DNA of 64,000 nucleotides, taken from the IMG/VR virus record IMGVR_UViG_3300035675_000001, one strand, 5' to 3'. Positions 464 to 63,963 of the stretch are shown piece after piece. Every line of letters begins with the position of its first letter. The stretch's first letter is position 1. This DNA comes from a virus. Lineage: Duplodnaviria; Caudoviricetes. Both the position numbers and the translations under genes were made by a program. Below the pieces are notes generated by a model. The model was not told the origin of the DNA. It ran no database searches and saw only the letters and a program-made list of their open reading frames with translations.

Positions 464-535
464 CGGACGTTTTTGTTTACTTTTTTGGATCGGTCGCCCG
501 CCCTGTAGATACATCGGGGCCGTGTGCCCTCGCTT

Positions 536-967
536 ATGGTCATTAAGAAAAAGAAAGACACGTTCAACGATTACTCGGTGGAACTGAGCTGGGGCCAGCT
601 CAACGCCATCTACCGGGCGCTCGAACAAGACCACGCTGATCCTCTTGCGGATGAGCTTTTTGCTGAGCTTGGCTGGTATCTCCAGAACGTCCCCGGACCC
701 GGTGAGGACGAGGAGGAATACAAGGAGGCCAAGGACGCCGAGAAGCAGGCCATCGAGGGCGGCGAGGAAGCAGGTATGCCTGGTGAACAGCGCAACCCTG
801 ACCTTATCGGCCAGGAGATTGGGGCCGAGGAGCCGGAAGGCGCTGAGGGTCCAGTCGAGGGCCAACCTGCGCCGGGCGGCGAAGAAATGCCGCAGGCCGG
901 AGAACCTGCCGAGCGACCGGAAGCTGCCGAAGCCGATCAATTCCTGGAACGTCCACCCGTTGGTTGA
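536..967 (+). CDS. Acidic hypothetical protein (possible internal head protein)
   Basis: ORF 524..967; ATG 536 preferred; E/P/G-rich tail; TAGATA at 506-511 upstream. Confidence 0.7.
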   Translation: MVIKKKKDTFNDYSVELSWGQLNAIYRALEQDHADPLADELFAELGWYLQNVPGPGEDEEEYKEAKDAEKQAIEGGEEAGMPGEQRNPDLIGQEIGAEEPEGAEGPVEGQPAPGGEEMPQAGEPAERPEAAEADQFLERPPVG

Positions 968-983
968 GTTCTATTTGGCGTGA

Positions 984-1613
984 ATGAGTGCCAATACCTC
1001 ACTACTGACGGACGCCTCCCGGCTATCCGCGACGCAGAACACGGAGAACTACGCCGAGGGCGTTGCCGTCCACATCAACGGCGACTGGTCTCAGCACTAT
1101 CAGTTCGTCGTGATTCCGCAGGCGTGGATTGATTCGTGCGGCAACACCATCCCCGGCAGCCAGCGCCTTCGCATCCCGCTGACGGCTTACAACACGGATG
1201 TCAACGTCGTGGTGCCCATTATTCCGTTCATCCCGCCCACCAGCGGCGTGGCTCCGTCGATCATCACACCCCCGACCGCCAAGAATATCGGCTACGGCGA
1301 AACGGCCCGATTTGCAGTGATTGCAGACGGCACGCCGATGCTGACCTATCAGTGGTATCACAACGGCAATCTCATCCAGGGGGCCACGTCCAACCAACTT
1401 GCCGTCACCAACGCTGCTCTGGACGATGCGGGCCTGTATTCCTGCACCATCAGCAACGACTTCGGCCAGATTACAACCACGCCCGTCCAACTGTATGTCC
1501 AGTGGGCGCAGCGCAACTGGCGCGAAACCACGTTTTGGGAGGATGTGGTGGACTTCTTCGACAGTGGGCCACTCTACGGCCTGCCGCCCGGCACGGTTGA
1601 TGGACCCCTATGA
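984..1613 (+). CDS. Ig-like (I-set) domain virion protein
   Basis: TYQWYHNG..IQGATSNQL..TNAALDDAGLYSCTISN Ig signature. Confidence 0.8.
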   Translation: MSANTSLLTDASRLSATQNTENYAEGVAVHINGDWSQHYQFVVIPQAWIDSCGNTIPGSQRLRIPLTAYNTDVNVVVPIIPFIPPTSGVAPSIITPPTAKNIGYGETARFAVIADGTPMLTYQWYHNGNLIQGATSNQLAVTNAALDDAGLYSCTISNDFGQITTTPVQLYVQWAQRNWRETTFWEDVVDFFDSGPLYGLPPGTVDGPL

Positions 1614-2706: not shown

Positions 2707-3159
2707 ATGCCTGATGTAATTTGTAAACAACTTGAAGCACGGGGTCTGATGACCCCGAACGAACACCAGCTCATCCGTTTCATGTTGGTTTGGGACTCGC
2801 AGAATCCCTTCGCCTCCATGATGGCCAACTTCTACCTGGGCAAAGGCCGCATCCTGGTGGACAAGATGCTCGCAGGTAACCACGATTGGAACGAGTCAGC
2901 CCAGCGCAACAAAGAGATCATCAAGTTCATCGAGGAAAAGAAGTGGCCCGAAGCTTCGATAGGCTACGGCGACATGCTCGTGGACTACATGACCAAATAC
3001 TGGCCCGACTGCGACAATGTGTTTTGGAAAAAAGCCGTCGTGCTCTACCAGGAAGCTAAAGAGCGCATGGCCAAAGGCGAGCCAGTGGTGGGCGTTTGGC
3101 CAACTAAGGCCGATGGTCCTCCACCGGCCTTCCCGTTCAAGCTGACCCGCACTCAGTAA
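2707..3159 (+). CDS. Hypothetical protein
   Basis: 150-aa ORF, 2 nt after previous stop, phage-like codon usage. Confidence 0.7.
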   Translation: MPDVICKQLEARGLMTPNEHQLIRFMLVWDSQNPFASMMANFYLGKGRILVDKMLAGNHDWNESAQRNKEIIKFIEEKKWPEASIGYGDMLVDYMTKYWPDCDNVFWKKAVVLYQEAKERMAKGEPVVGVWPTKADGPPPAFPFKLTRTQ

Positions 3160-4826
3160 GTTTTCAGCGCCAGCATGGACATGTAAACCATGCAATACTG
3201 GTCGCTCGGATTGGTGATCGTAAACTTATTGTCGAACTGCCGGAGCCGAGGCCCGGAGACGGTCCCGTTCAAGGAGAATCCCGGAACATTGGTATCACCG
3301 CCCAGGGGAATAGTCGCCTGGGTTCCATAGCTCTTGACCGTGCCCGCGTTAGCGAAGCTCAGAATGGCGTCAGTGTTCGTCCAATTCACCGAAGCCGGAG
3401 AGGTCGAAAGCGTGTCAGGCATGACGAGCGTGATCGAACCCAGCCATTTGGCGTAATAGTAAAACTTCAAGAAGGCCAGCCCGTGCCCAACTGCCGCATC
3501 GCTCACCTTGTATTCCTGGAAGGTCACGATAGCCGTGCCCGGATACGAAAGCGGGATGTTGAGGTAAGGGCCGTCAGGACCACTTGCAGCCTTGTAGTCG
3601 GCCTCGACGTAAACGGTGCCGGTGCATGTTCTGAACCCATAGGCCGTGGTGGGGGCGCTGAACATCAGGTTCCAGCTCGTGTTCGGAGGAGCCGTAGTCC
3701 ACTGAATCGGACCAGTCGGAGGCAGGACCGCGATGTAAGTTTGGGTCTCTCCACCGACCACATAGGTCACCACATCATTCAGGATGTAAGGCTGCGACGG
3801 GTTATCGGTCGGAGGGTTGCCCCAGGTGCCACGGTAGGTTGGACCGTTGGAGCCTTTGGCAGCGATCAAATCCCACTCAGCCGGATACGTGATGGGATCG
3901 TGGTTCGTGATCGGGAGCGGCGAAACGCAAACATACGAGCTGCCCAGGTATTCCACTCCCTCGTCCTCATTGTAAGTCGTGGCCGGGCTGTAAACGCCCT
4001 TCCAGTCGAACCCAGGATCACCCTTCTTGGCCAGGAAATCCCACCAGAGATCGCCGCCTCCACCCACCGGGACGTTGCCGACGTTGCCTGCTGCTTTGGA
4101 TTTGAACGCTGAGCCGTCGTAGTAAACCACGTCGGTTGCGGTGTAGGCCGTGGAGACCACCCAGGTAGATTGCCAGGTCAGCCCAGGCGATCCGGCAGGA
4201 CCGGTCGGACCAGCTCCGCCGCTAGGCCCCGGAGGACCAGCGGGTCCGGGCGGGCCGGAAGGCGCAATCGAAGCCGACGCCAGCAGAAAGCCAGACGTGG
4301 CTCCCAGGGGGCGCATGGTGAGCAGGATCGAAGCGATCATCTCCAGCGTGGAACCGCCACGGTTCTTGAGCGTGATGATGAACTCGCCCGCCGAGAAGAA
4401 AATGGTGCCGCCCGTGTATTCGGTGGACGTGCTGACCACCTGAGCGCCGGTGGAATTGCCGAAGCTGTTCGGGGTGTAGTAAATGTCCAGCTCCGCACTG
4501 GAGGAGGCCGGGATCGAGGTCACGACCGCATTGAGCACGCGGCACTCAAAGCCGGGCGGGATGCGGAAGTTCTGGATGATCTCCTCGGCATTGGGTGGGA
4601 GCGTGGTCCGCAGCACCGGCATGGGGACAAACTGCTCCTTATTGTTTACAACTTCGATTACCTCGTTGACCTTCTGCGCGATGGCCACGTCACGCTGAGC
4701 CAGGTGCCGGGTCGGGCGCGAAATGCCTGGAACGTCCATCGCATCACCCTCGGTGAAGTGACGCACGTCGTTCTCGCCGTAGTTGATTGCTGCGGCATCT
4801 GGAATGCTTAGTGGGTCGATTGCCAT
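3153..4826 (-). CDS. Collagen-like tail fibre protein with CBM5/12-like repeats
   Basis: GPP-GPA-GPP-GPS-GGA-GPT-GPA-GSP triplets; three W..(T)AY...DVVYY-type repeats. Confidence 0.75.
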   Translation of the reverse strand: MAIDPLSIPDAAAINYGENDVRHFTEGDAMDVPGISRPTRHLAQRDVAIAQKVNEVIEVVNNKEQFVPMPVLRTTLPPNAEEIIQNFRIPPGFECRVLNAVVTSIPASSSAELDIYYTPNSFGNSTGAQVVSTSTEYTGGTIFFSAGEFIITLKNRGGSTLEMIASILLTMRPLGATSGFLLASASIAPSGPPGPAGPPGPSGGAGPTGPAGSPGLTWQSTWVVSTAYTATDVVYYDGSAFKSKAAGNVGNVPVGGGGDLWWDFLAKKGDPGFDWKGVYSPATTYNEDEGVEYLGSSYVCVSPLPITNHDPITYPAEWDLIAAKGSNGPTYRGTWGNPPTDNPSQPYILNDVVTYVVGGETQTYIAVLPPTGPIQWTTAPPNTSWNLMFSAPTTAYGFRTCTGTVYVEADYKAASGPDGPYLNIPLSYPGTAIVTFQEYKVSDAAVGHGLAFLKFYYYAKWLGSITLVMPDTLSTSPASVNWTNTDAILSFANAGTVKSYGTQATIPLGGDTNVPGFSLNGTVSGPRLRQFDNKFTITNPSDQYCMVYMSMLALKTY

Positions 4827-5893: not shown

Positions 5894-7809
5894 TACATCC
5901 TCTCCGGGTAGAATTGCCGATACGGCTGCTCCGTCTTGGCCTCGTTGAGCGGGCCGGGACCAGAGCCGGTGACGGTCTGGCCTGTTTCAGACTGGCGTTT
6001 CAGCTCCATCGGGTGCCGCCCGTAGGAGGAGATAATCACGTCCCAGCTTCCGATCTCCGCCTTCATGTCCATGCCTTTTCTGCTGAACATGTTCTCGTGG
6101 AGCTTGCGCTTGCCACGGCTGCGGGAGGGAGCCGCTTCGCCCTTGATGCCCTGGCGAAGCTCCTCGACCAGCGCAACAACATCGGGCGACTGGCGCACCT
6201 TGTCTTCGATCTCGCGCAGGATGCGGTAGCTGTAAGGCGCGGGTCGTTTTTGTAAACTTTCCATAGCTGGCTCCTCGATTTCAGAGGGGAGCGCAGTGAT
6301 GAACATGTTCACGACCTCATCGGGCAGGCGCATGTAGCGTTTGAAGATGGTCTCGACCCAGGCTTCGCGGGGCAGGTTGTATTTGGCCATCACGTCGGCC
6401 AGGACATCGAGCACTTCGGCCTGCTGGCGCAGCATCTCCAGCTTCATCTGGTCTTCCAGGCTGCCGATGGGCGGCATCATGGCCTTGATGTCCAGCTCGC
6501 GGATGTCTTTGCCCTTGAGCACCGCGTGGAAGTAGCCGAGCCAGGTGTAGCCGTTGATGACCGGGCGGCGGATGCCCTTGATCTTCCGCAGGAACCTCAT
6601 GTCCTGGGCAAGCAGCGCCTTGCCGCTCATGGCCTGGTCCCCACCGGCGCTGCCGCTCTTGGCACCAAACCAGGAGCGCGGCATACCGATGATCGAGTAA
6701 AAGAGGTCGGTCAGCAGCTCGATGTCGTAAACGTCGGGGATGTTCTGCGTGCCCTGGAGCTTTTCGATGGTGTGCTCGAAGCCGGTGGGCTTGGCGACCC
6801 ACAGGATCGTGTCCAGCGACCAGGCGTTGTAGAAAGCCTGGAAGCCCATCGGGTCCGTGAGGTCTTGCGTCAGGCCGTTACTGCCCTGGTTCTGGAGGCC
6901 AAAGGACAGCTTGCTGCGGAGGGTCTGCTTCCACCGCTGGACCGTCTTCATCTGCTCCATCGGCGGCTGATCCTTGGTGTCGATGTTGATGACGTAGCGG
7001 TCGGGCTGGACCTGGGCGCGGTGGACGACCATCTGGTCAATAGCCAAGCGCAGCTTTTTGTAAATCCCCTGCGCCTCGTCAAAAATCGGTTCGCCGTGCT
7101 CGCTGATGCGGAGCCGATACATGCGCCGGAAGTGGAGCATGTCCCACGGATACCACAGCTCCTCGACGTTTTGGCCGTCGCTGATGGCCACGCGCTCGAT
7201 GGGCGTCTTGTTGTCCGGGTGGACGAACGCAGCTTCCTTGCTGGGCTTGTGGCCGGTCCAGCGGAACCCGACCACCTTGCGATTGCGCTCCAGCCAGTAG
7301 CGGCGAATGTCCATCGGGTGGATGAAGCTCATCCCCAGCACACCTTCGCCGGGCGCGTATTCCAGCTTCTCGAAATGGTTGCCCAGGGAGGCGACGTAGT
7401 AAATCTGCGAGGGCAGCAGCTCCTCCGTGTTCAGATTGACCAGCATCCCGTTCAGTTCATCCTCGAACTCGCGGTCGTTGCACTGATACCAGATCGAGGC
7501 CGGGCTGTTCTGGTCGGTCTGAGTAGCTTCGTCAACAATTTCTACCAGGGCGGCTGCCATCAAGTCCCATCCGGCCATCTCGTCCCAAAGCTGGAGCATG
7601 GCGTCGAAGGTGACAGGACGCCGCATGTAGGCGTTGAACCTTGACCAGACATCCGGGTTGGCGACCCTGCCCGCCTCCTGGAACTCCTTGAACAGCTCTT
7701 GATCTGCTGTGGGCGTGCCTGCCCGTGGAACGAGACTTCCGGTTGGCTGCCCGGATGTCCCGATCATCCCCAGGTATTTCAGCAGGCTTGTTGCAGTCGT
7801 GTTTGCCAT
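5893..7809 (-). CDS. gp20: Portal protein, T4 gp20-like
   Basis: IFDEAQGIYKKLRLAIDQMVVHRAQVQPDRYVINID resembles gp20 LEDA.VIYR..RAPERR.FYID; 638 aa. Confidence 0.85.
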   Translation of the reverse strand: MANTTATSLLKYLGMIGTSGQPTGSLVPRAGTPTADQELFKEFQEAGRVANPDVWSRFNAYMRRPVTFDAMLQLWDEMAGWDLMAAALVEIVDEATQTDQNSPASIWYQCNDREFEDELNGMLVNLNTEELLPSQIYYVASLGNHFEKLEYAPGEGVLGMSFIHPMDIRRYWLERNRKVVGFRWTGHKPSKEAAFVHPDNKTPIERVAISDGQNVEELWYPWDMLHFRRMYRLRISEHGEPIFDEAQGIYKKLRLAIDQMVVHRAQVQPDRYVINIDTKDQPPMEQMKTVQRWKQTLRSKLSFGLQNQGSNGLTQDLTDPMGFQAFYNAWSLDTILWVAKPTGFEHTIEKLQGTQNIPDVYDIELLTDLFYSIIGMPRSWFGAKSGSAGGDQAMSGKALLAQDMRFLRKIKGIRRPVINGYTWLGYFHAVLKGKDIRELDIKAMMPPIGSLEDQMKLEMLRQQAEVLDVLADVMAKYNLPREAWVETIFKRYMRLPDEVVNMFITALPSEIEEPAMESLQKRPAPYSYRILREIEDKVRQSPDVVALVEELRQGIKGEAAPSRSRGKRKLHENMFSRKGMDMKAEIGSWDVIISSYGRHPMELKRQSETGQTVTGSGPGPLNEAKTEQPYRQFYPERM

Positions 7810-7867: not shown

Positions 7868-8080
7868 ATGGCTGAAAAGAAGCTCAAAGAACACATCGTG
7901 TCCTTTCGGATTCCGAAGGAACAGGCAGCTATCGTGACCAAGATGCTGGAGGACCAGCCCATCCTGGGCGTGAAGTCCATCAACCAGTTTTTCCGCAAGA
8001 TTGGGCGGGATCACTTGGCCGGTCGCCTGGCCTACAAAAACCCGGAGCACGCGACGGTCGATACAGACGTTCTCGACTAA
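7868..8080 (+). CDS. Ribbon-helix-helix (CopG/Arc-like) DNA-binding protein
   Basis: HIVSFRIPKEQ...SINQFFRK: alternating beta strand then two helices. Confidence 0.55.
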   Translation: MAEKKLKEHIVSFRIPKEQAAIVTKMLEDQPILGVKSINQFFRKIGRDHLAGRLAYKNPEHATVDTDVLD

Positions 8081-9095: not shown

Positions 9096-10133
9096 ATGAG
9101 AGCTTTAGTTTACGCGGATTTGCAGGCCACGGACGGGCACGAGCGGTGTTTTGGTGACCCCACCAAATCCCTGCAACTCTATCGCATTGAACGGTTTTTC
9201 GACCAAATCGAGCGCATCTACAAGGAGCACCAGTGCGACGCGCTTTGGGACTTGGGGGACACGACCGACGACCGGACGGCGGTCCCCGTGCCGGTCATCG
9301 ACCTGATGTGCGACCGGCTGGAACGATTCCTGGGCCGCTGGAACTTGAAGCTGGTCGGCAACCACGAGCAGTTCCTCCGGGACACCAAAATCCACGCCGG
9401 GAAGATGTTTCGAGCCTATTTCCACGTTGTGGACGGCTGCGAGCTGATTCCGTGCGAAAAAGTAAACATTTTGTGCATCAGCTACCACGATGACGAAAGC
9501 ACGGTCCAGAACTTCCTGCGGCTCCACCGGGCCAAGCGCCCCGTGCTGCTCTTGGGCCACTTTCAGGTTTCGGGGTGCCAGCTCCCTGGCGGCATCTCCA
9601 TAGCCGGGCTGGGCAAGGAGTCGCTTGATTTTGTAAACATTGGCCTGCTTGGGCACATCCATCGGCCCCAAACCATCGGCAGCAAGCTTCACTACGTCGG
9701 ATCACCCTTCCAGCAGGACTGGGGCGAGTCTGGCGAGGCCAAGCGCGTGGCCATCGTGGACATCCAGGGCGACAAGATCGACGTGTCCTGGGTGCCCCTG
9801 GAGGGCTTCCCGGCCTATCGTCAAGTGGCGTTCGCCGATTTCATCTCCGGCGTCAAAGCGGACTCCGAGGACCGCTACAAGGTCGTGCTCCGAAGCGTCG
9901 AGGAGACCGAGAAGTATTACGCCCACCCCCTGGCCAACCGCGCCGACGAGGCCATCTACGACTACCAGCAGACGGTCGAAACCAACGGGACCGAGACCGG
10001 CGAGCCAATCCCACGCTCCAAGCAGGACATCATGCTGCGATACCTAAGACAGAATCCGCCGCAGGATGCGGGGATCGTCCTGGAAGACGACGCCATGCTG
10101 GCCTACGGGGATCAGATTTCGTCCGGCACATGA
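9096..10133 (+). CDS. sbcD: SbcD/Mre11-like (T4 gp47-like) metallophosphoesterase nuclease
   Basis: ADLQ, LGDTTD, VGNHE, GHFQ, GHIHRPQ, YVGSP motifs. Confidence 0.85.
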   Translation: MRALVYADLQATDGHERCFGDPTKSLQLYRIERFFDQIERIYKEHQCDALWDLGDTTDDRTAVPVPVIDLMCDRLERFLGRWNLKLVGNHEQFLRDTKIHAGKMFRAYFHVVDGCELIPCEKVNILCISYHDDESTVQNFLRLHRAKRPVLLLGHFQVSGCQLPGGISIAGLGKESLDFVNIGLLGHIHRPQTIGSKLHYVGSPFQQDWGESGEAKRVAIVDIQGDKIDVSWVPLEGFPAYRQVAFADFISGVKADSEDRYKVVLRSVEETEKYYAHPLANRADEAIYDYQQTVETNGTETGEPIPRSKQDIMLRYLRQNPPQDAGIVLEDDAMLAYGDQISSGT

Positions 10134-10794: not shown

Positions 10795-10949
10795 ACACAC
10801 GAGTTTTCCGCATCGACCTGGTGACTGAGCCGGACCTCGCCGCCGCCATCCAGGCAGCCTGCGACAAGCAGCTCACCGAAGGGTTCAAGCTCGCCTCGAC
10901 CTTCGTCTGGAAGACCGACCTGGTTCTGATCTTCCAGAAAACGTCGTAA
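10791..10949 (+). CDS. Small hypothetical protein (52 aa, DUF4177-like)
   Basis: Below ORF-track cutoff; MNTRVFRIDL...LTEGFKLASTFVWKTDLVLIFQKTS; ATGA overlap. Confidence 0.65.
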   Translation: MNTRVFRIDLVTEPDLAAAIQAACDKQLTEGFKLASTFVWKTDLVLIFQKTS

Positions 10950-10967
10950 ACATTTTCTACCCCATCG

Positions 10968-17142: not shown

Positions 17143-17155
17143 CGGTTGAAATTGT

Positions 17156-18211
17156 TTACAAATGTGCTCCGGCTCCGCGCTGGCCAGGGAGGTCGGTGCC
17201 CAGGCGCATAATCTCCCGGTCCACGCTGTGGGGCCTCTCCCGCTCGGTGACGGCGTAGAGCGCAGCATCCACGTCGTCGTTGGCGTCATTGGTCAGCCGG
17301 GCCGTGCCGTCCGCGTTTTTCCCGTGCGGCATCTTGGCAACCGATACAGGCATCACAGAGCTGAGCCGCAGCGCAGTCTCCACGGCCAGGCCGGTGGAAT
17401 CGCTGTCGTAGAGGATGCAAAACTCCTTGATGTGCCGGTAACGCTGAAACTTGGCTACCTGGGACCGGCTGAGACGATGCGTGAAGATACAGACCGGGAC
17501 GATGTGCTGGATGTCCAGCTCCCGCAGCTTGCGGCGGATCGAGAGCGTGTTCAGGATCGACTCGACCACGATTACCAGGCTGATATTCGGGTCGGCCAGC
17601 GCGTCCAGGTTGTAAACCCAGTAGCTCGGCCCATAGGGCACTTCCTTTTTGCTGGGGAACTTCTTGGTGGTCTCGAAGCCCTCGTCGGAGTAGGTGCGGC
17701 CCTGGTAATAGACGCAGCGCACGCCCTCATAGACCGGGAAGATGCAGAAAGGCTCCCAATTTCCTGTCCGCGTGAATCCGGCCCCCGCTTCCTCCAGGTC
17801 TTCGATGCCCAGGTGCTTACGCTCGGCCATGTCCTTGCAGAAACGCCAGTAGCAGCTCTTTCGGTTCTTGGCCAGCGGGCTGAACCCCTCCGGCAGCTCG
17901 ATGTTCTGGACCGGCGTGACCGCCTGCTTCATGTCGCCCCGGAGCGTCTGGCCGAACTCGTCAAACCCGGCGCTGCCATCATCCGTCCAGCTCAGCCCCT
18001 TCAACTTGAACAGGGCGGCAACGTGGTGCGGCTGGGGGTCGTGGCAGCGCCAGCAATGCGACCGTAAGGTCTTGACGTTGATGCTGCGATTTCCCGTTCT
18101 ATCTCCACAGCCAGGCACGGGGCAGACGATGTAGATTTCATCGTCCGTCGTGCGGTCTTTGATGACCTCAAAGACGTTGCCAATCTCGCGTTTGACCCTA
18201 TCCGGCGACAT
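17156..18211 (-). CDS. dnaG: DNA primase (Zn finger + TOPRIM), DnaG/gp61-like
   Basis: CPVPGC..CWRC zinc finger, YYQGR, VVES, YDSD; start ATG 18211 (MSPDRVK). Confidence 0.85.
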   Translation of the reverse strand: MSPDRVKREIGNVFEVIKDRTTDDEIYIVCPVPGCGDRTGNRSINVKTLRSHCWRCHDPQPHHVAALFKLKGLSWTDDGSAGFDEFGQTLRGDMKQAVTPVQNIELPEGFSPLAKNRKSCYWRFCKDMAERKHLGIEDLEEAGAGFTRTGNWEPFCIFPVYEGVRCVYYQGRTYSDEGFETTKKFPSKKEVPYGPSYWVYNLDALADPNISLVIVVESILNTLSIRRKLRELDIQHIVPVCIFTHRLSRSQVAKFQRYRHIKEFCILYDSDSTGLAVETALRLSSVMPVSVAKMPHGKNADGTARLTNDANDDVDAALYAVTERERPHSVDREIMRLGTDLPGQRGAGAHL

Positions 18212-18426: not shown

Positions 18427-19299
18427 ATGAAACCGCAAGGTGTCTGCATCGTTGCGATGGGTGAGCCATGCTTTGGCGTTTACGCCTACAACCTGGCTGT
18501 CACCATCAAGTTCCGCGACCCCTCCGCACAGATTGCCGTGTTTTACGAGCCGCGCACCCTGTGCGGCCTGGAGCCGCAGGAGATCAATGTCTTTGACGAG
18601 CTGATCGAGCTGGGGCCACGGCACGAATACACCTACCAGGGGCGGATCAATCCCCTGGGATTCAAGCTCCGCGCCCACCTGTTCTCGCCCTTCGAGCGCA
18701 CGATCCTCCTGGACGCCGATAGCGCCTGGTTCGGACCCCGGACGGTGACCTCTTTCTTTGAAAACGAGATGGCCGGGCTGGACTTCGCCACAGTCAGCCA
18801 CGGCGTCAGCCACGCCACGAGGCCAATGGCCCTGGGCAACGTGATCGACCACGGCCCGCTCTGGCAGGTCCAGAAGGCATTCGAGATTCCCGATGGCCGG
18901 ACGATCCATGAGTGCTACACCCAGTGGTTCTACCTGGTTCGGAATGAGCGCACCGAAGCTTTCCTCAAGCGAGCGATCAGCCTTTACGACGACTGCCAGA
19001 TGGGCCTGCGGATGCGCGGCTCGGCCTGGCGCAACTCGGTCGTAAACGATGAGCTGGTCCTGTCCGCCGCCACAGCCCTGTGCGAAATAGCTCCTGGCCG
19101 CATTCCGTTTCATCCCACCACGGACGGCTCGACCAAGGAGCTGACCCCGGAACAGCAAATTGTAAACATTGTCGGCGAGGACACCACGGAGAAGTCCATC
19201 CAGGCGCTCAAGATTTACACCTTCATCACCGACGCCATCCGCGACATCGGTTTCCGCTGGCTGCCTAAGCCGTGGCAGCCAAAGTTTTATCCCTATTAG
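18427..19299 (+). CDS. GT-A fold nucleotide-diphospho-sugar transferase
   Basis: KLRAHLFSPFERTILLDADS (DxD) motif. Confidence 0.75.
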   Translation: MKPQGVCIVAMGEPCFGVYAYNLAVTIKFRDPSAQIAVFYEPRTLCGLEPQEINVFDELIELGPRHEYTYQGRINPLGFKLRAHLFSPFERTILLDADSAWFGPRTVTSFFENEMAGLDFATVSHGVSHATRPMALGNVIDHGPLWQVQKAFEIPDGRTIHECYTQWFYLVRNERTEAFLKRAISLYDDCQMGLRMRGSAWRNSVVNDELVLSAATALCEIAPGRIPFHPTTDGSTKELTPEQQIVNIVGEDTTEKSIQALKIYTFITDAIRDIGFRWLPKPWQPKFYPY

Positions 19300-29549: not shown

Positions 29550-29555
29550 AGCTGT

Positions 29556-37159: not shown

Positions 37160-37525
37160 TTAAGTAGCGCCCTTGCCGAGCGCCAACAGTATCGCTGCAT
37201 CTACGTCACGATGCGGGTCAAACCAGTCTGACCCACGCCGAAGCAAGCTCAGCAAGGCCATAGATTCCGCATCTGACTTAATTACGAGCTTCCCCTCCTG
37301 GATGCTGACCTCCAAATTTTTGGCCAGTTTTCTGAGCTTCGGCTCCATATCCGTTATGCGCTGAGCCAGATCAGGGACCGGCTTGAGCTTGGCGTCCTGG
37401 TTGAACCAGACCATAAACCTTTCCACCACCGCATCCTGCTTTTTGGTAGTAATTGTAAACAATTTATCTTGGAGTGCCCCTCGGACAGCATCCATGAACA
37501 CCCCCTCTTTTCGGCCAACGATCAT
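37160..37525 (-). CDS. Hypothetical protein
   Basis: ATGA-coupled to upstream neck gene. Confidence 0.65.
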   Translation of the reverse strand: MIVGRKEGVFMDAVRGALQDKLFTITTKKQDAVVERFMVWFNQDAKLKPVPDLAQRITDMEPKLRKLAKNLEVSIQEGKLVIKSDAESMALLSLLRRGSDWFDPHRDVDAAILLALGKGAT

Positions 37526-38184: not shown

Positions 38185-38487
38185 ATGATGAAGCGACCCG
38201 CTGAACTGATACAACTGCTCGACGAACTAAAGGGCGAGGCCCCGGAATCCGCCGTGGTTGTTCAAGCCGACAGCCGCCTCGTAGTCGTAATCGACGATAC
38301 CGAGGTCCGCTACGAGTTCACCGGGCCGGAAGCGAAACTTCTTCTGGCCAGCCGGGACACTGTGGAGCGACTGTTTGAGGCCCTGGACTACCCGGAGGAA
38401 ACTTTCGTTGAACTCCAAAACCTGACGATTGATGAGGATGTGATGGCTGAACTGGAGAGCTACGCCTCAACCGTCGATGAAATGTAA
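38185..38487 (+). CDS. Acidic hypothetical protein
   Basis: 100-aa ORF. Confidence 0.65.
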   Translation: MMKRPAELIQLLDELKGEAPESAVVVQADSRLVVVIDDTEVRYEFTGPEAKLLLASRDTVERLFEALDYPEETFVELQNLTIDEDVMAELESYASTVDEM

Positions 38488-38495
38488 ACAAAACT

Positions 38496-42382: not shown

Positions 42383-44332
42383 ATGGCTGACCTTCGGATC
42401 AAGCGGATACAACTGAGAAACTGGACGACCGTGCAATCGGCGGACATCAGCTTTCCCGACAAGGGCTTAGTTTTGGTGATTGGATCGAACCTTGCCTCCG
42501 ATGGCAAGCTCCAGAGCGTGGGGTCCGGCAAGACAGCCCTGGGCGAAGCCCTCAGCCGGGCGCTGACGGGCGTGGCCGGGCGGTTCGCCAACCTGGGGCA
42601 CTACGCTTCGGACACGGCCCGCGTGCCCAATACGCTGGTGAAGGTCGAAGCCGAATTGCTCTCAAAACCCTTGACCGTGGAGATGGGCTTCAAGTGCCCG
42701 GAGCTGTCCAAGACCGGCGAGGGCTTGCGCTTCACCTACGACGGCAAAGTGATTCAGCGCGGGCATGTTGACCAAACCCGTGAGGAGCTTTCCCGGACCA
42801 TTCAAGTCACGTCCGAACTCGCAGAATGGACAGTCTTCCTCGACGGCGACAAGCTCAAGTTCAACCGGATGTCCCAGCAGGACTCCGTGAACCTGCTCAT
42901 GACCGCCCTGGCCCAGCCGCCCTGGACCGAATACTTCGAGCGGGCGACCAAGGTGCTCCAGGATGGCCGTCGCCAGGTCGCCCTTGCCAACCAGGCCCTC
43001 CAGAGCGCCAAGATGAAGCTGGAGCGCCTGCAAACAGACCTGGAGGACGCGCAGCAGGATCACAATGACGCCAAGGCCGAGTATGAGCGCCAGGTCGAGG
43101 AGTTGCAGGACCGCATCAAGGAGTTGAAGCGTCAAAATGTAAACGACCGCAACTCCGTGAAGGCGGCTGAGGATGGGATCGCCAAGCTCAAGAAGAAGAT
43201 CAAGCTCCTGGAGGAGCAACACGCGACCGCCGCCAAAGAACTTGACCTCCAGCGCCAGCAGCTCCGAGATCAGCTCGCCCTGCTCGACCAGGAGTGGCAG
43301 CAGGCCGTGGAAACCCGGTCCACACGCGACACGGAGGAGCGCCAGGCGCAGAAACGCCTGGACGCCATGAAGAAGGTGCCGAAGAACTGCCCCACCTGCA
43401 ACAAGCCCTGGGACAAGGCCCACAGCGACGAGGAGATGAAGAAAGCCGAGAAGGCGCTCAACGAGGCGACGCTGAATTACCAGGCAGCCGACCGGGCTTA
43501 CCAGGGGATTAAAACCAAGCGGGAGGGCATCCAGACGCGCATCCGGGAGATTCAGGACCAGATGGACGACGACACGCACCTGGCAGACGCCAAAGAGCTG
43601 GGCGAGCAGGTCACCGGCTACGAGCGGACCATCCGCAGCCTCAACGCGACCATCCAGGCCCGCGAGGTCAAGATCGCCGGGATGGCCAACGGCGTGGACA
43701 ACAGTTTTGTAAACAAAAAATCTGCCATCGTCGAGGAGCGCCAGCGGGCGCTCACGGCGGGCAACAAAGCCGTGGAAACTGCCGCCAGCGACCTGGCCGG
43801 TGAGGAGCAGGTCTTCAAGGTGCTCGAATACTGGCACAAGGCTTTTGGACCCACCGGCATCCCCAACATGGTCCTGGCCGACGCCATCCCGCCGCTCAAC
43901 CGTGTAGCCCAGCGCATCTCGAACATGATGACCGGGGGCACGCTCCAGGTCAGTTACGCAACCAAGCGCGAGTTGGCCACGGGCGACAGCAAAGCCCAGC
44001 TCATCATCAAGGTGGAAAACCGGATCGGCAGCAAGCGCCTGGAAGGCAGTTCCAAGGGCGAGTCGGGCCTGACCAACCTCATCATCGCGGAGAACTTGTC
44101 AGAAATCGGCCAGGTGTCGAACCGCGTCGGTTTCCGCTGGTATGACGAAATCACCAGCGGCCAGGATGCGGTCGTGCGCCGGAGCATTTTCAGCTACCTC
44201 AAGGAAGTGGCCAACAAGATGGGCATTCTGATCTTCGTGGTCGATCACCACGTCGAAGCCTCCAGCTACGCGGACTACGTGCTCGTGGCGGAAAAGACCA
44301 AGAACGAAGGCACGCGCTTTTTCTGGCGCTAA
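42383..44332 (+). CDS. sbcC: SbcC/Rad50-like (T4 gp46-like) ATPase
   Basis: IQLRNW, GSGKT Walker A, CPTC zinc hook, coiled coils, WYDE Walker B, VVDH. Confidence 0.9.
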   Translation: MADLRIKRIQLRNWTTVQSADISFPDKGLVLVIGSNLASDGKLQSVGSGKTALGEALSRALTGVAGRFANLGHYASDTARVPNTLVKVEAELLSKPLTVEMGFKCPELSKTGEGLRFTYDGKVIQRGHVDQTREELSRTIQVTSELAEWTVFLDGDKLKFNRMSQQDSVNLLMTALAQPPWTEYFERATKVLQDGRRQVALANQALQSAKMKLERLQTDLEDAQQDHNDAKAEYERQVEELQDRIKELKRQNVNDRNSVKAAEDGIAKLKKKIKLLEEQHATAAKELDLQRQQLRDQLALLDQEWQQAVETRSTRDTEERQAQKRLDAMKKVPKNCPTCNKPWDKAHSDEEMKKAEKALNEATLNYQAADRAYQGIKTKREGIQTRIREIQDQMDDDTHLADAKELGEQVTGYERTIRSLNATIQAREVKIAGMANGVDNSFVNKKSAIVEERQRALTAGNKAVETAASDLAGEEQVFKVLEYWHKAFGPTGIPNMVLADAIPPLNRVAQRISNMMTGGTLQVSYATKRELATGDSKAQLIIKVENRIGSKRLEGSSKGESGLTNLIIAENLSEIGQVSNRVGFRWYDEITSGQDAVVRRSIFSYLKEVANKMGILIFVVDHHVEASSYADYVLVAEKTKNEGTRFFWR

Positions 44333-48594: not shown

Positions 48595-48697
48595 AATCGT
48601 TCAATTTCAAAGGTTTGCGCCACATCGGCGCGTTCTTACGCTCTAACTACCCCTGGTTGGGCATGAAAAAAATGTAAACAAAAGTGCATTTACCCCC

Positions 48698-48726
48698 TTG
48701 ACGGCGAACTTTTTATCGTTTACAGT
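48698..48726 (+). promoter_or_regulatory. Host sigma70-type early promoter
   Basis: TTGACG-17 nt-TACAGT. Confidence 0.7.
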
Positions 48727-48736
48727 TTTGACCAGA

Positions 48737-55795: not shown

Positions 55796-56562
55796 CCCAT
55801 GAAACGCCGGAAGGAATTGTAAACAGTTTTGCCGTCGCCTTCCTTGTGCTCAGGCATGAGGGAAGCGCCGGGCTGAGCTGGAGTCATGGCGTTGGCGACC
55901 TTGGCGGCGATCTCAGCCGGATCGGCCATCGTGGCGACCATCGACTCGGCCATTGCCTGGAGTTCTTCGGGAGCAGGGTTCTGACGCCCCAGGATCGTGT
56001 CCATGACGCCTCTGGCGCTGGCCGAGGACGAAGTGCTGGGCTGGGTCATCGGCTGCTCACGGCCCATCTGCTGCGCGGCAGCGACGGACGGCGGGGGCAT
56101 GGGCCGCTCGGCAGGCTTCGGGGGTGCCGGAACCTGAGATGGATCAAGCTGTTGGAAGACGTTGGGGGTTACATCCGGCGCTACCAGGGCGGCGGTTGGT
56201 TGAATCAGCTCCTCACCCGCCACGTTGGTCGTAGCCTGGGGTTCTGCCGGGCCGTCTGCCGGAGGAAGCGGGTCCGTGCGGATGCCAGGGATGTTGGCCG
56301 CGCCGGTCATGTTGTCCATGCTTTGGGCGTCGGGCGGAATGATCGACTCGTCATCGGCTTCGGTCATGCCGATAATGCTGGCGACAACGCTGCTTTGACG
56401 GGCCTTCTGCCTGAGCTTATCGTCGTCTTTGTCTTTGGGCGGCACAGTCCGCTGCCTGCGCGGATCGTTGCGCTTGCCCGCCAACACGGGCGGCACGTCG
56501 CTCTCGTCCACCGGCCCTCTGCCGACCGGCTGCTTGCCAAGGATTTGGTCAACAAGGCTCAT
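55792..56562 (-). CDS. P/A/Q-rich hypothetical protein (possible internal head protein)
   Basis: GGAG SD; IIGMTEADDE junction. Confidence 0.7.
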   Translation of the reverse strand: MSLVDQILGKQPVGRGPVDESDVPPVLAGKRNDPRRQRTVPPKDKDDDKLRQKARQSSVVASIIGMTEADDESIIPPDAQSMDNMTGAANIPGIRTDPLPPADGPAEPQATTNVAGEELIQPTAALVAPDVTPNVFQQLDPSQVPAPPKPAERPMPPPSVAAAQQMGREQPMTQPSTSSSASARGVMDTILGRQNPAPEELQAMAESMVATMADPAEIAAKVANAMTPAQPGASLMPEHKEGDGKTVYNSFRRFMG

Positions 56563-57026: not shown

Positions 57027-57944
57027 CTACGCGGGCGCATCGACCAAAACATACTGTCCGAGATTGTCCACCGGGATACCCATTCCGCTATGGCCCCCGG
57101 CGATCTTCGGCAGCCGCAGATAAAAAGGCCGGTAGATCGGCTCCTGGCCGTAACGCTTGCTGATGTAGGACATGACCTCGTAGGACTCGTGATCCGCCAG
57201 CTTGCGCTCAGCACCGCCGAAGCTGGTGGGCACGTCCTGGTGCCGGAGCATCGGCTGCGGGAACTCCAGATCGAGGCAGTTCTGCATTTGGCCATCCAGG
57301 TTGATGAATCCACCCAGCCTCGCTCGGATGGTGTAGTCGCAGTGCTCCTCGCCGAAACGACCGAAACGCGCATCGAAGTAACCGATCCTGTCGAAGCAGG
57401 CGCGGGTCACTGACATCATGATGCCAGTCATGCGCGGAAGAAGCTTCACTTTGTAGCCGCGAGAATTGACCGTGACCCAGCGGTAGGTTTCAGGCGCACC
57501 AGAGATGGCCGGTGATGCCTGGGTGAAGTCGCAAAAGCAAAACATGCCCACGTCCAGGTCTTCATGGCCGCGAGCATAAAAGTTTACAAAATCACCCACG
57601 ACGAACAGGTCGTCGTTGAGCAGGCACAGATGGTCACACCCGGTTTCAGAAAACCACTTGAGCGCCCGGTTCGAGTTTCCCGCTACGCCCAGGTTGGTGC
57701 TGCCCAGGAACACCTGGATGTTTGGACCCAGGTGAGCACCGCTGTATTCCGCCGCCAACAGGTCAATCCGGTCCTGGACCTTGACCGGCGCGGGTCCGCG
57801 CAGGAAGGTCTCTGTCCCGTCGCGCTGGCCGCAATCCTCGAAGATCGCAGTTGGATACTGCGAGCAGTGTTGGGAAAGCCCGGAGAGGCAGTCCTTGAGC
57901 GCGTTGACGCGATTATACGTGAGGATGGCGACGGCTGATTTCAT
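57027..57944 (-). CDS. GT2 family glycosyltransferase
   Basis: AILTYNRVNALKDCL..IFEDCG..NLGVAGNSN..LLNDD..GYFDARFGRFGEEHCDY. Confidence 0.85.
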   Translation of the reverse strand: MKSAVAILTYNRVNALKDCLSGLSQHCSQYPTAIFEDCGQRDGTETFLRGPAPVKVQDRIDLLAAEYSGAHLGPNIQVFLGSTNLGVAGNSNRALKWFSETGCDHLCLLNDDLFVVGDFVNFYARGHEDLDVGMFCFCDFTQASPAISGAPETYRWVTVNSRGYKVKLLPRMTGIMMSVTRACFDRIGYFDARFGRFGEEHCDYTIRARLGGFINLDGQMQNCLDLEFPQPMLRHQDVPTSFGGAERKLADHESYEVMSYISKRYGQEPIYRPFYLRLPKIAGGHSGMGIPVDNLGQYVLVDAPA

Positions 57945-58264
57945 GCGGCGGGTGGTGTGGGGGCAAGTTTGGTTTGGACGGCAGTCTTGAGTTCCTTGCC
58001 CGTCTTGAACCGGATCACCGGCCTTGACGGGATGCGGACCTCGCCGGATTCAGGGTGCTTCGGGTTGCGCCCAACGCGCTCTTTGGACATGCGGACTTCC
58101 CAAATGCCAAAGCCTCGAAATTCAACTCGACGACCCGATCCCAGGGTGGTCTCGATCTGTTTGAGGAAAGCTTCAACGACCGATTCGACAACCGCCTGGG
58201 ACTGATTGGTCGTGGCGGCTACGGCTTTGACAGCTTCGATTTTAGTGAGTGTTTGGTTGTTCAT
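57941..58264 (-). CDS. hup: HU/IHF DNA-binding protein
   Basis: LTKIEAV..GRRVEFRGFGIWEV..RVGRNPK..IPSRPVIRFKTGKELK. Confidence 0.92.
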   Translation of the reverse strand: MNNQTLTKIEAVKAVAATTNQSQAVVESVVEAFLKQIETTLGSGRRVEFRGFGIWEVRMSKERVGRNPKHPESGEVRIPSRPVIRFKTGKELKTAVQTKLAPTPPAA

Positions 58265-61173: not shown

Positions 61174-61982
61174 CAGGATTTGAACTTGAGGGGGTCACAA
61201 GTATCCTGGTAGTCCCGAACGATGTCCTCCAACTTTTTCTGCCGTGCCTCCGCGCTGGGAAAACGCTCATAGTGCTCCGACATGTTCAACGCCGACAGCA
61301 GCAGTGAATAAATCGAGCTTTGGACGGAGTAATGCGGGTATTTGGAGTAATCAAATTCGGGCGGTAGTTTGAGCGGCTGCCGCTCAGGCGGCAATTCGCT
61401 TTCCGGCATGGCCGGTTCCTCCGGCTTGGCAGCGGGCACAGCTTCCGCTGCGGGCGCTGGCTCAACCGGAGTGTTCGTCTTGACGGGCTTAACCGGCGCT
61501 ACGGCCTTGACCTTCTTCGGCGGAGGCGGCGGTTCGACCTTCTTCTTGGCAGGAGGCGGAGGCGGCGGGGGCGGCGGGTCCGGCGCAGCCGGTTTAACCG
61601 CCTTGGCCTTCTTCGGTTTTTCCTTTGCCGATTCCGGCTGGGCCGGAGCAGGCGCAGGACTGGCAGGAGCCGTCGCGGGGGAGCTGTTGTTCGGGCCAGG
61701 AGAACCCAGCCGCATCATGACCCGCGCTGCCATTCGCAGCACTTCATTCAGCGGCACCTTATGGGCATCCTTACCCTCACCGTGCAGAGCCTCCGTGATT
61801 TCGACGGTTTCCTTGGAGAAAAACACCTTCTCCCCGAAGCGCGTCTCAATCGGATGCGTCTTCGGGCTGAGCTTGTCACGGATGGCAGGCTGGCTTTCCA
61901 GAATTTCCTGCACCCGCTCATAGCGCATCGAAGTCGGCAGCTTTGACTGCGGCTTCGTTTCAGTTGCGATGGCAGTGCTCAT
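61173..61982 (-). CDS. Pro/Ala/Lys-rich hypothetical protein
   Basis: Globular ends with PPPPPPP/PAK linker. Confidence 0.7.
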   Translation of the reverse strand: MSTAIATETKPQSKLPTSMRYERVQEILESQPAIRDKLSPKTHPIETRFGEKVFFSKETVEITEALHGEGKDAHKVPLNEVLRMAARVMMRLGSPGPNNSSPATAPASPAPAPAQPESAKEKPKKAKAVKPAAPDPPPPPPPPPAKKKVEPPPPPKKVKAVAPVKPVKTNTPVEPAPAAEAVPAAKPEEPAMPESELPPERQPLKLPPEFDYSKYPHYSVQSSIYSLLLSALNMSEHYERFPSAEARQKKLEDIVRDYQDTCDPLKFKS

Positions 61983-62047
61983 ACAGTCGTCGTGGTTCTT
62001 GATGTAACGGGACAGTATTTTTTGTCCACACTTTTAAGTAAAAAAAT

Positions 62048-62536
62048 TTAGCCCTTCGGTTTCTGACTCTCCGCGAACTGCTTAGCGGACGTTTTCAGTG
62101 CTTCACGCATGTCCAAAAGGCCCTCGTTCCATGCTCCAAAGTGGGCGACCGTGGCCCGGAACTCCTGAATGTCAGGCTTCCGGGTCTTGAGACTGATCTC
62201 ACCCTTCTTGTTCCTTTCCACATTGATAGTCATGATGGCTCGATGTATCGCCGCCTTCTTTTTGATGTCATCGGCGTGGGTCCAGAAATAATAGTCCCCG
62301 ACGACGACGAAAGCCGCGCCCGTCAAGAGTTGATAGACGGGTGCGAGCTTGCGGCAGACGATGGGGTTGCCCTTCGGCTCGACGTGCTCCCCTTCGTTGT
62401 TGGTGCGGATGGCGAGTATGGAAGTGATCTTGAGTTCCTGCTCCCGGATGGGATTAAACTCGACATACCGCTTCTCGTTTACAATCGCGTCCACGTCTTT
62501 GGTGAACTCAGCGTTCACTTCATACTCGGTTTTCAT
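62048..62536 (-). CDS. Putative phage metallopeptidase-family protein, degenerate active site
   Basis: FVVVGDYYFW..KKAAIHRAIMTI..RKPDIQEFRATVAHFGAW; HExxH absent. Confidence 0.65.
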   Translation of the reverse strand: MKTEYEVNAEFTKDVDAIVNEKRYVEFNPIREQELKITSILAIRTNNEGEHVEPKGNPIVCRKLAPVYQLLTGAAFVVVGDYYFWTHADDIKKKAAIHRAIMTINVERNKKGEISLKTRKPDIQEFRATVAHFGAWNEGLLDMREALKTSAKQFAESQKPKG

Positions 62537-63963
62537 AGGTCATCGTCCGCAACGCCAGGTATTGATTGTTTACGCCGGGCACGGGTCGGAGGTTCAGGGT
62601 CGGCGTCAACACCTTCCTCGTCTTCCGTCTCCGGCTGATAGAACTCGCCCAGGCCCTCGGTCTCGTAAGCCCGGCGCATAGCTACTTCCCACAGCGCATC
62701 CAAGTCGCGGCGGTGTGCGCGGTAAAAACTCAGCCACTCGTAGCGGTCGGCGATGGACGGGTCTTTGACCCGCTTGCCCTTTTTCCCTTCCTCCTCCTTG
62801 AGCGTGATGTTCTCCGCGAACGTGGTGGTCTCCACTTTGAATTTGCGGAACAGGAAGGTGATGGTGCTGCTGCCCTCCTCGCGCTGGGCGACTTTGAGGA
62901 AAATCAGCGACTCCAGGATGCTGAGCGCGTTGTGCAGCCCGCCCTGCTCCTCGTCGAACAGCAGGACCATGCGAGCCTCGCGCCCTGGCTTGCGGATGCG
63001 GTTTTTGACCGTGCGGAATCCGACCAGGTAGCCAGCCGGGAACTGCGCCCCTTTGACCAGGGTGTATTTGACCGGCACCTGGAACATGAAGACGCGATGG
63101 CTGGCGTAAAAGGCCAGAGCCTTGCCGCCGAAGGTGGAAAAGTCGTCCGCCTGGGGCGTGTTGAACCGGGCCTTGTAGCCCCCGCCTTGCTGGAGGTCTT
63201 TGAACTTGGTCCGCACCTGGTTGGTGAAGATGCAGGCCACGTTGTGTCGGCTGACTTCGTTGGTGATGCAACGGAATCCCAGGCTGATTTGCTGGGCCTG
63301 GCGCGGGTAGTCGCGGTCGCCCCATTCGCGCTCCAGCTCCTCTTTCGAGCTGGTGCCCGCGATGGTGTCCGTGATGAACAGGCCGAACACGATCTTGCCG
63401 GTGTTCTCCTCCTGGTTGTATTTCTCGCGCTCCTTGATCTTCTCGATGAACTTGTCCACGGCCTGGAAGATTTGATCCACCGTGTCGCACATCATGAGAC
63501 CGGTCTTCATCGTGATGCGGTCGATGACTTCCTTGCCCTCCGCGTCGAAGCCAACGTCGGTGATGGTGACCTTGAAGCCTTTTTCCAGGGAGTGCTCGTT
63601 ATCCACGTAGCACTTGATGACCTCGACCTTCTCCGGCTTGACCTGCTTGACCGTGTAGATGAAGCCCTCGCGGGCCACGACTTCGTAGATGAATCCGGCC
63701 TGAAAGCGGCACATCGAACGGACCATCATGGCCGTCTTGCCGCAGTTCTCCAACCCGAACACTTCGCTGATGCGTCCAAAAGGAAATCCGCCTACGATGC
63801 GGTCGTAGGGGTCGATTCCGGTCAGGAGCACATACTTTACGTCGCCCAGGATGTCCTCGTCGGACATCACAATGTCGAAGGTTGCCGCCCCATCCTTCTT
63901 GGGGCGGCAACGCGACATCGAGGCAACGAAAGACTCCGTAAGGTCTTTCGGCATTTTGCCCAT
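62533..63963 (-). CDS. recA: RecA/UvsX recombinase
   Basis: GGFPFGRISEVFGLENCGKT, YVDNEH, ITDTIAG, IFTNQVR, TFGGKALAFYASHR, VKNR. Confidence 0.92.
   Translation of the reverse strand: MGKMPKDLTESFVASMSRCRPKKDGAATFDIVMSDEDILGDVKYVLLTGIDPYDRIVGGFPFGRISEVFGLENCGKTAMMVRSMCRFQAGFIYEVVAREGFIYTVKQVKPEKVEVIKCYVDNEHSLEKGFKVTITDVGFDAEGKEVIDRITMKTGLMMCDTVDQIFQAVDKFIEKIKEREKYNQEENTGKIVFGLFITDTIAGTSSKEELEREWGDRDYPRQAQQISLGFRCITNEVSRHNVACIFTNQVRTKFKDLQQGGGYKARFNTPQADDFSTFGGKALAFYASHRVFMFQVPVKYTLVKGAQFPAGYLVGFRTVKNRIRKPGREARMVLLFDEEQGGLHNALSILESLIFLKVAQREEGSSTITFLFRKFKVETTTFAENITLKEEEGKKGKRVKDPSIADRYEWLSFYRAHRRDLDALWEVAMRRAYETEGLGEFYQPETEDEEGVDADPEPPTRARRKQSIPGVADDDL

Follow-up and report, generated by a model that had tools for sequence, protein, structure and literature searches.

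A conserved AT-flanked 16-bp element, a candidate operator, in a clade of uncultured wetland jumbo phages

The window analyzed here is the whole 64-kb stretch of the uncultured virus record IMGVR_UViG_3300035675_000001 (59% GC, 96% coding), which carries numerous copies of the hexamer GTAAAC/GTTTAC. The copies embedded in AT-rich flanks form a 16-bp element, AAAT-TGT-AA-ACA-ATTT, which is a genuine, conserved, clade-wide cis-element. The best explanation, to which sequence patterns lend about an even chance of being right, is that the 16-mer is an operator-like binding site for a dimeric protein of phage or host origin, which would act genome-wide with promoter-specific effects. This reading is supported by DNA-level selection, dyad symmetry, orientation independence, orthologous conservation, and the recurrence of the element in two promoter registers.

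The window encodes a T4-type gene set comprising a portal, a tail sheath, a prohead protease, baseplate proteins and a gp46/SbcC-like gene, and the phage has the appearance of a lytic jumbo phage of the T4 type. It was compared with the complete records of three uncultured IMG/VR relatives: G001 (238 kb, 96% complete, 68% sheath identity), G002 (70 kb, 81% sheath identity, 77% overall identity to the window) and G003 (26 kb, 80% sheath identity). Nothing near-identical to the window was found in INPHARED, and the phage DNA is present only in DNA metagenomes of wetland, soil and subsurface. The clade is one of deep-branching uncultured wetland jumbo phages.

Two populations of one hexamer

The window contains 67 copies of the hexamer (41 GTAAAC and 26 GTTTAC), against 19.5 expected from base composition, and 19 copies of the 8-mer (11 TGTAAACA and 8 TGTTTACA), against 0.81. 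Both totals had been counted in an earlier, sequence-only reading of the window, and the recount reproduced them exactly. The top enriched 8-mer, TTGTAAAC (24 versus 0.8 expected), pointed toward a longer element. Two null models of 1000 shuffles each were used, the first keeping every protein and the per-gene codon usage, the second keeping dinucleotides as well; the intragenic excess of every word form was matched in 0/1000 shuffles under both. The three copies quoted in the sequence-only reading are present, at 43709 (in frame, TTT GTA AAC AAA), at 41331 (minus strand, TGT AAA CAT) and at 37451-37464 (AATTGTAAACAATT). The sites do force rare codons, as GTA accounts for 77 of 1524 valine codons in the window, TGT for 25 of 220 cysteine codons and TTA for 21 of 1626 leucine codons. 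The contention that selection acts on the DNA rather than on the protein also stands: copies fall in several reading frames, rare codons are used, and the AT-flanked excess beats every null.

When each of the 67 copies was placed on the gene map, two populations emerged, split by their flanks. The 29 GC-flanked copies are nearly all read in frame, either as Val-Tyr (GTT-TAC, gene strand) or as Val-Asn (GTA-AAC). The AT-flanked copies (~24-30) occur in several frames and on both strands and are heavily over-represented between genes.

The GC-flanked population reflects an extreme avoidance of restriction-type sites. In the window, 54 of the 64 six-base palindromes are absent, GTAC never occurs (157 expected), and CTAG is found three times (69 expected). 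Non-palindromic words of the type read by enzymes are also missing: GTAGAC/GTCTAC, which fits GTMKAC, members of CYCGRG and GRGCYC, CTCTTC and CTGAAG. The number of absent palindromes is 56 in G003, 40 in G002 and 17 in G001, and GTAC and GTMKAC are gone from all. As side observations, CCCGAG, GAGCCC and AGATCC are nearly or wholly absent, C6/G6 appears once (85 expected), and five palindromes are spared or enriched, namely TGGCCA (62 versus 20), AAGCTT, TCATGA, ACCGGT and ACATGT. In the codon-pair table, Val-Tyr is spelled GTT-TAC 29 times against 7 expected, and the alternatives GTC-TAC (16 expected), GTG-TAC (13 expected) and GTA-TAC all stand at zero. The GTT-TAC excess arises because GTAC, GTMKAC and nearly all six-base palindromes are banned, so that Val-Tyr can hardly be written otherwise. 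The same avoidance explains the scarcity of the other GTWWAC words, which the sequence-only reading had tied to the motif: it is true as a count (GTATAC is absent and GTTAAC occurs twice) but is due to the general loss of palindromes and unrelated to the motif.

These biases were built into an avoidance-aware null, in which synonymous codons were swapped within each gene and any swap creating one of 100 avoided words was rejected (200 shuffles). GC-flanked intragenic copies numbered 27 against 27.9 under this null, and 6/25 were kept at orthologous positions in G002, about the background of 27%. The GC-flanked excess of the hexamer is thus a by-product of restriction-site avoidance. AT-flanked intragenic copies numbered 16 against 0.89 (~18-fold), TGTAAACA 13 against 2.0, and TTGTAAACAW 9 against 0.54, each unmatched in 200 shuffles. 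The refutation proposed at the outset, namely that the enrichment would disappear once site avoidance was modeled, therefore applied to the GC-flanked hexamers and failed for the AT-flanked ones.

The notion that the whole signal is a functionless product of site avoidance and codon bias holds for the GC-flanked class, as judged by its count, its Val-Tyr spelling and its background-level conservation. It is refuted for the AT-flanked class, which exceeds the same null, is orthologously conserved, and remains in excess in G001, a genome that avoids far fewer palindromes; as an account of the whole signal, it deserves next to no credence. In G001, a dinucleotide-preserving null gave 6.8 strong sites against 35 observed (0/200) and 5.3 copies of the 8-mer against 24, and the word occurs 51 times in that whole genome against 2 for the reversed word. 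A generic filling of AT islands after the palindrome purge was rejected as well: among the AT-rich islands of the window, 12 of the 18 coding and 7 of the 9 intergenic contain the core, and G001, which tolerates AT-rich palindromes, has the motif as well. The GC-flanked copies illustrate a general pitfall. Genomes that purge sites over-represent harmless words such as GTTTAC, since the other spellings of a dipeptide are banned, and motif scans in them require an avoidance-aware null.

Anatomy, conservation and distribution of the element

An alignment of the exact 8-mers in the four genomes (97 sites) yields the consensus. Each flank position is mirrored on the other side of the dyad (-1 T/+1 A, -2 A/+2 T, -3 A/+3 T, -4 A/+4 T), and the sole asymmetry in the 16 bp is the central AA/TT. 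Information content falls to background beyond ~±5 bp, and the conserved footprint extends to ~±7 bp, where it breaks the usual wobble of third codon positions. The center is AA/TT only: G001 contains 25 copies of GTTAAC, yet TGTTAACA is found once there against 51 AA/TT copies. A center so strict in a genome that tolerates GTTAAC indicates that the central A-tract is required or inherited and is no mere remainder of the palindrome purge.

Among 21 strong sites that align with G002, 19 retain the core (random hexamers: 27%), and among 15 such intragenic sites, 13 do so; G001 and G003 give the same ranking, with AT-flanked copies above GC-flanked copies and background. Individual sites turn over (those at 19162 and 22793 are specific to the window) while the density is held across the four genomes. 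In G002 and G003, the orthologue of the site at 27351 has kept GT..AC with its center flipped between AA and TT, at an unchanged distance to a downstream GTTCT word.

The sequence-only reading had also proposed a methyltransferase-linked motif. GTWWAC is a documented orphan N6-methyladenine (m6A) motif of Burkholderiaceae, modified on its fifth base and read by M.BceJIV; in Ralstonia and Burkholderia the motif shows enrichment in the regions preceding genes and overlap with promoter hexamers (PMC11380664, PMC5390034); all four centers (AA, TT, AT, TA) are substrates of this enzyme (PMC11380664). The phage element shares the hexamer family, the enrichment upstream of genes and the overlap with promoter hexamers, and the GC content of the phage fits Ralstonia/Burkholderia-like hosts. 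A target of a GTWWAC-type adenine methyltransferase such as M.BceJIV, serving epigenetic control or protection, is nonetheless highly improbable. GC-flanked GTAAAC copies, which should be equally good substrates, are neither enriched beyond the avoidance-aware null nor conserved, selection acts on a 16-bp dyad with symmetric flanks, and AA/TT centers alone are used, even in G001. The N6_N4 methyltransferase domain PF01555 was absent from G001-G003, including the 96%-complete G001, in a search of phage, not host, genes whose controls were positive. One borderline match to a Dam-class (D12) adenine methyltransferase lies at 201562-201747 of G001, within a 273-residue open reading frame.

Strong sites recur every 2.5-3.2 kb in all genomes, with 24 in the window and 74 in G001. 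In G001, 22 of 23 ten-kilobase bins are occupied, and the spacing is slightly more even than random (coefficient of variation 0.77, P ~0.016). Intergenic DNA is strongly preferred: it makes up 3.9% of the window and holds 8 of its 24 strong sites, and across the genomes one third to one half of strong sites lie in 4-14% of the DNA. Many copies are nevertheless more than 300 nt from any gene boundary. Orientation is random with respect to the gene in which a copy lies (39 sense, 32 antisense), to local transcription (co-directional and contra-directional copies being about equal) and along the genome (34 runs versus 37.8 expected, P = 0.21). In four cases the TAA within GTAAAC is the stop codon of the upstream gene (10947-10949, 17156-17158, 29556-29558 and 38485-38487), so that the element overlaps a gene end and the control region of the next gene.

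This distribution bears on two roles suggested earlier. A matS/SBS/parS-type organizer confined to one domain was rejected, as the sites are spread evenly over nearly all bins. Stoperators of Cluster A mycobacteriophages are asymmetric, point mostly in one direction relative to transcription, and are read by a monomeric repressor, with one copy overlapping the early promoter (PMC6550527, PMC9283540). The element resembles them in being a short word repeated dozens of times between and within genes; it differs in its dyad-symmetric flanks and random orientation, which do not support a stoperator-like role, and in that the phage looks lytic. The broader proposal of a dimeric DNA-binding protein fared better, as symmetric flanks and random orientation fit such a reader.

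A signal for replication, recombination or packaging (Chi-, origin/primosome- or pac-like), or an architectural spacing element unrelated to transcription, would account for the slightly even genome-wide spacing, for the conservation of isolated intragenic copies, and for site turnover at constant density. We consider it very unlikely. A polar motif of the Chi/KOPS kind was rejected for want of any orientation skew in the runs test, and strong intergenic enrichment, together with exact registers to promoter boxes, speaks against the remaining forms; to our knowledge, no element of the Chi, origin or pac kinds has this sequence.

Promoter registers

The element recurs in two fixed arrangements upstream of genes. 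Class E has the layout TTGACR, 14 nt, GTTTAC(AWTT), 9-13 nt, ATG. Ten cases show the exact gap, and the opposite core orientation has none at gaps of 13-21 nt. In this arrangement, TACAWT falls where a -10 hexamer would, after the canonical spacer of 17 bp and nearly atop the start codon. The idea that class E drives a paralogous gene family was rejected, as the downstream genes are unrelated. Class M has the layout core, 11-12 nt, GTTCT, 7-10 nt, ATG, with the core in either orientation. The gap between core and GTTCT peaks at 11-12 nt (12 cases), and the register is seen at 13 strong intergenic sites. In the window, class M arrangements precede 1-447(-), 16544-17128(-) (GroES-like) and the gene that begins at 27383(+) (baseplate-hub-like). 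About 30 of 41 GTTCT-type starts are without the motif. Three further copies in G001 lie just upstream of a TTGACA -35 box. An element used at -10, at ~-28 and at ~-50, and in either orientation within one register, behaves as a regulator-binding site and not as a core contacted by sigma.

The sites of the window and one class E promoter are given below, with their conservation in the relatives.

470..485, minus strand: strong site AAAAAGTAAACAAAAA, intergenic, class M; GTTCT (minus, 458-462) is 12 nt downstream, then the start of 1-447(-)
2718..2733, plus strand: strong intergenic site AATTTGTAAACAACTT; the called start, 2749, follows 20 nt on
4639..4654, minus strand: strong site within the tail-fibre-like gene 3153-4826(-), same strand, in-frame GTA AAC; kept in G002
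6247..6262, plus strand: strong site within the portal gene 5893-7809(-), antisense; kept in G002
9457..9472, plus strand: strong site within gene 9120-10133(+); kept in G001, G002 and G003
9628..9643, plus strand: strong site within gene 9120-10133(+); kept in G001, G002 and G003
10941..10956, plus strand: site supplying the TAA stop of gene 10791-10949(+); kept in G002 and G003
17149..17164, minus strand: strong class M site CATTTGTAAACAATTT, supplying the TAA stop of 17156-18415(-); GTTCTA (17136-17141, minus) follows at 12 nt and precedes the ATG of 16544-17128(-), the GroES-like gene
19157..19172, plus strand: strong site within gene 18427-19299(+); lineage-specific, relatives show GTT/GTG AAC
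22017..22032, plus strand: strong site within gene 21401-23656(-), antisense; kept in G001, G002 and G003
22515..22530, plus strand: site GGAATGTAAACAAACC within gene 21401-23656(-); kept in G001, G002 and G003
22788..22803, minus strand: strong site within gene 21401-23656(-); lineage-specific gain, absent from G001, G002 and G003
23556..23571, minus strand: strong site within gene 21401-23656(-); kept in G002 and G003
24842..24857, minus strand: strong site ATTTTGTAAACATTTT within the M23-like gene 23686-25416(-); kept in G002 and G003
27346..27361, minus strand: strong site, intergenic, class M; 11-nt gap to GTTCTA (27368-27373, plus), followed at 27383 by the baseplate-hub-like gene with its ATG; center flipped in G002 and G003
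29549..29564, minus strand: site whose TAA is the stop of gene 29556-29909(-), with the next ATG 5 nt on
34075..34090, plus strand: strong site ATTTTGTAAACAATTA, intergenic, 59 nt upstream of the tail-sheath start (34020, minus); kept in G001, G002 and G003
37450..37465, plus strand: strong site TAATTGTAAACAATTT within gene 37160-37525(-), antisense; kept in G002 and G001
38479..38494, plus strand: strong site supplying the TAA stop of gene 38185-38487(+); kept in G002
38871..38886, minus strand: strong site within gene 38541-39839(+), antisense; kept in G002
41326..41341, minus strand: strong site within gene 40327-41790(-), read TGT AAA CAT; kept in G002 and G001
43704..43719, plus strand: strong site GTTTTGTAAACAAAAA within the SbcC/gp46-like gene 42383-44332(+); kept in G002
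48669..48684, plus strand: strong site, intergenic, in the control region that separates the divergent genes 48220-48594(-) and 48737-49105(+); first member of a convergent pair at a distance of 44 bp
48698..48728, plus strand: class E promoter with TTGACG (48698-48703), 14 nt, GTTTAC (48718-48723); TACAGT at -10 with a 17-bp spacer; ATG at 48737, 13 nt after the core
55814..55829, plus strand: strong site within gene 55792-56562(-), antisense; kept in G002
57577..57592, minus strand: strong site within gene 57027-57944(-); kept in G002 and G001

The registers raise the alternative that the motif belongs to the core promoter and is contacted by RNA polymerase itself, with a sigma factor of the host or the phage, as a TACAAT-like -10 in the GTTTAC direction and as a -35/-30 box upstream of GTTCT, with intragenic copies serving as internal or antisense promoters. 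We judge this unlikely, although several features fit it: the single orientation and exact spacing of class E, the fixed core-to-GTTCT gap, the TACAAT contained in the consensus, a density of one copy per ~3 kb that resembles the promoter density of a large phage, and the use of GTTTAC in early promoters of T4-type phages (PMC1524935). Opposing it are the lack of orientation bias relative to transcription within and between genes, the function of class M in either core orientation with an orthologous site that flips, the lack of a TAnnnT peak 16-20 nt downstream, the ~80% of sites without a partner element, the copies remote from gene boundaries, and the use of another start-proximal word, GTAGTTA, by virion genes.

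Comparison with T4 promoters gives a similarly mixed picture. The MotA box of T4 middle promoters, (a/t)(a/t)(a/t)TGCTTtA, is directional, lies 11-13 nt before a -10-like element and replaces the -35 (PMC1524935). The core likewise precedes GTTCT by 11-12 nt at ~13 promoters; it differs in sequence, in occurring in both orientations in the same register, and in that most copies are away from promoters. T4-type early promoters carry GTTTAC at -36 to -31, after an A-rich tract and with a TATAAT-like -10 ~18 nt downstream (PMC1524935). The phage element has the same hexamer after an A-rich tract, whereas its GTTTAC overlaps the -10, 14 nt after TTGACR, and is followed by no -10 element at 17-19 nt; a T4-early-type -35 was rejected on that ground. 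An analogue of the T4 late promoter (TGTAAACA versus TATAAATA, gp55) was rejected in view of the random orientation and the use of GTAGTTA by virion genes. A sigma54 enhancer, that is, an upstream activating sequence for an enhancer-binding protein, was rejected too, since the activator domain PF00158 is absent from G001-G003, including the motif-rich G001, with positive controls, and -24/-12-like words are not positioned upstream of genes.

Two start-proximal words were observed alongside the element. GTAGTTA (once GATAGTTA) stands 4-7 nt before start codons in 7 of 9 occurrences, at the portal, fibre-like, 1397-residue and other virion-type genes (window positions 4834, 7817, 8811, 16530, 26237, 38177 and 57024, minus strand). 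Shine-Dalgarno sequences are mostly absent, and GTAGTTA looks like a separate late-type promoter or initiation signal of near-leaderless mRNAs. GTTCT(A) stands 6-10 nt before the starts of non-virion genes (GroES-like, SbcC-like and the protein encoded at 7868), in 41 genes over the four genomes, at positions that include 968, 7856, 17136 and 27368; a T-rich stretch and a C often precede it. It is a third start-proximal word, distinct from GTAGTTA.

A putative operator and its candidate readers

The operator-like reading is favored by the enrichment under the strictest null, the center flip at 27351, the short footprint, the intergenic enrichment, the convergent pair and the AT islands. An HU-family protein and a small RHH (ribbon-helix-helix)-like protein, both conserved across the clade, are compatible with it as candidates only. 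One regulator with many operators scattered over a large phage genome is known from the P1 C1 operators and the conserved inverted repeats of phiC31; both are temperate phages whose sites fall almost entirely between genes, whereas half of the sites of the present element are conserved inside coding sequence.

Under this reading, the protein would be a global regulator or an architectural protein that binds as a sequence-specific dimer, and it may be phage-encoded or a host factor. At TTGACR-type promoters (sigma70-like and probably early), the site overlaps the -10 hexamer, and a protein occupying it would repress. At GTTCT-type promoters, the site would be centered ~15 bp upstream of the box, at ~-28 from a near-leaderless start, where, by analogy with T4 MotA at -30, the protein could activate or repress. 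Isolated intragenic copies could be bound by the same protein in a promoter-independent role, such as compaction, marking of phage DNA, or roadblocks. A more specific version is speculative and, as a whole, quite unlikely: a phage-encoded architectural regulator, for example the HU/IHF-family or small RHH-like candidate, would coat the DNA at ~3-kb intervals, shut off sigma70-type early promoters from the -10, and switch on GTTCT-type promoters from ~-28. This would be a single-protein early-to-middle switch and DNA marker in a T4-like lineage without MotA/AsiA and base modification.

Several observations weigh against an operator. The left arm of class E sites often has C instead of T, and these sites could be ordinary -10 regions whose likeness to the motif is superficial. 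Only ~20% of strong sites are in a recognizable promoter register, and for the majority we infer a role. The strict AA/TT center implies that recognition is imperfectly symmetric or that DNA shape matters. Among public RNA runs examined for transcript starts, none contains the phage. Finally, Pfam detected no HTH (helix-turn-helix) or RHH domain among the small proteins of the window, so that no binder was identified, and the structural model of the 7868 protein is of low confidence.

Two phage proteins are candidate binders.

57941..58264, minus strand: HU/IHF-family DNA-binding protein, 107 residues, E = 3e-22; a candidate only, with no link to the motif
7868..8080, plus strand: 70-residue protein kept in G001, G002 and G003, with a strand-helix-helix (RHH-like) sequence pattern; a candidate only

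When the small proteins of the window were screened with Pfam and PHROGs, the first was the one with a clear DNA-binding domain. Another HU-like gene, less clear, is at 4842-5186, and both HU genes are conserved in G001 and G002. Of the binders named in the sequence-only reading, one HU-family gene was thus borne out, whereas the RHH label of the 7868 protein could not be confirmed: it gave no family match, no sequence match in the PDB, an AlphaFold2 model with a predicted local distance difference test score (pLDDT) of 60, and no Foldseek match. The Pfam screen of small proteins, beyond which no search was made, revealed no repressor or integrase. In G001-G003, sigma70 region 2 had no match, nor did the MotA C-terminal domain PF09158, for which the control genomes were silent too. 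A literature search for a regulator reading TGTTTACA or TTGTAAACAA returned nothing relevant.

For a lineage about whose gene regulation little else is known, the analysis thus supplies a well-defined cis-element together with three promoter architectures. If one protein reads all copies, it would offer a compact means of timing transcription in a large lytic phage, and perhaps of organizing or marking its own DNA.

Some further observations concern hosts and neighboring genes. Matches to the 16-mer elsewhere are mostly chance occurrences in AT-rich genomes, and host inference from them was rejected. The exact 16-mer does occur in intergenic DNA of GC-rich alphaproteobacterial contigs, from two Ferrovibrio metagenome-assembled genomes and Bradyrhizobium erythrophlei (contig positions 2483-2516, 2541-2556 and 1989-2004). 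In one Ferrovibrio genome, two tandem 16-mers lie 23 bp from each other in the interval that separates an MFS transporter from an ABC-transporter/xanthine-dehydrogenase-like operon. These contigs are without homology to the phage, and the copies may represent a cellular operator as well as a faint hint at the host. In the window, the HU-family gene lies directly downstream of a membrane-like 129-residue gene and two large genes (57941-61173, minus). Pfam detected no sigma domains in 58659-61173, and 60139-61173 gave a weak PHROGs match to a late activator (E = 0.002). The 209-residue product of 984-1613 has an immunoglobulin-type domain (Ig_3/I-set, E ~1e-10) that probably decorates the virion.

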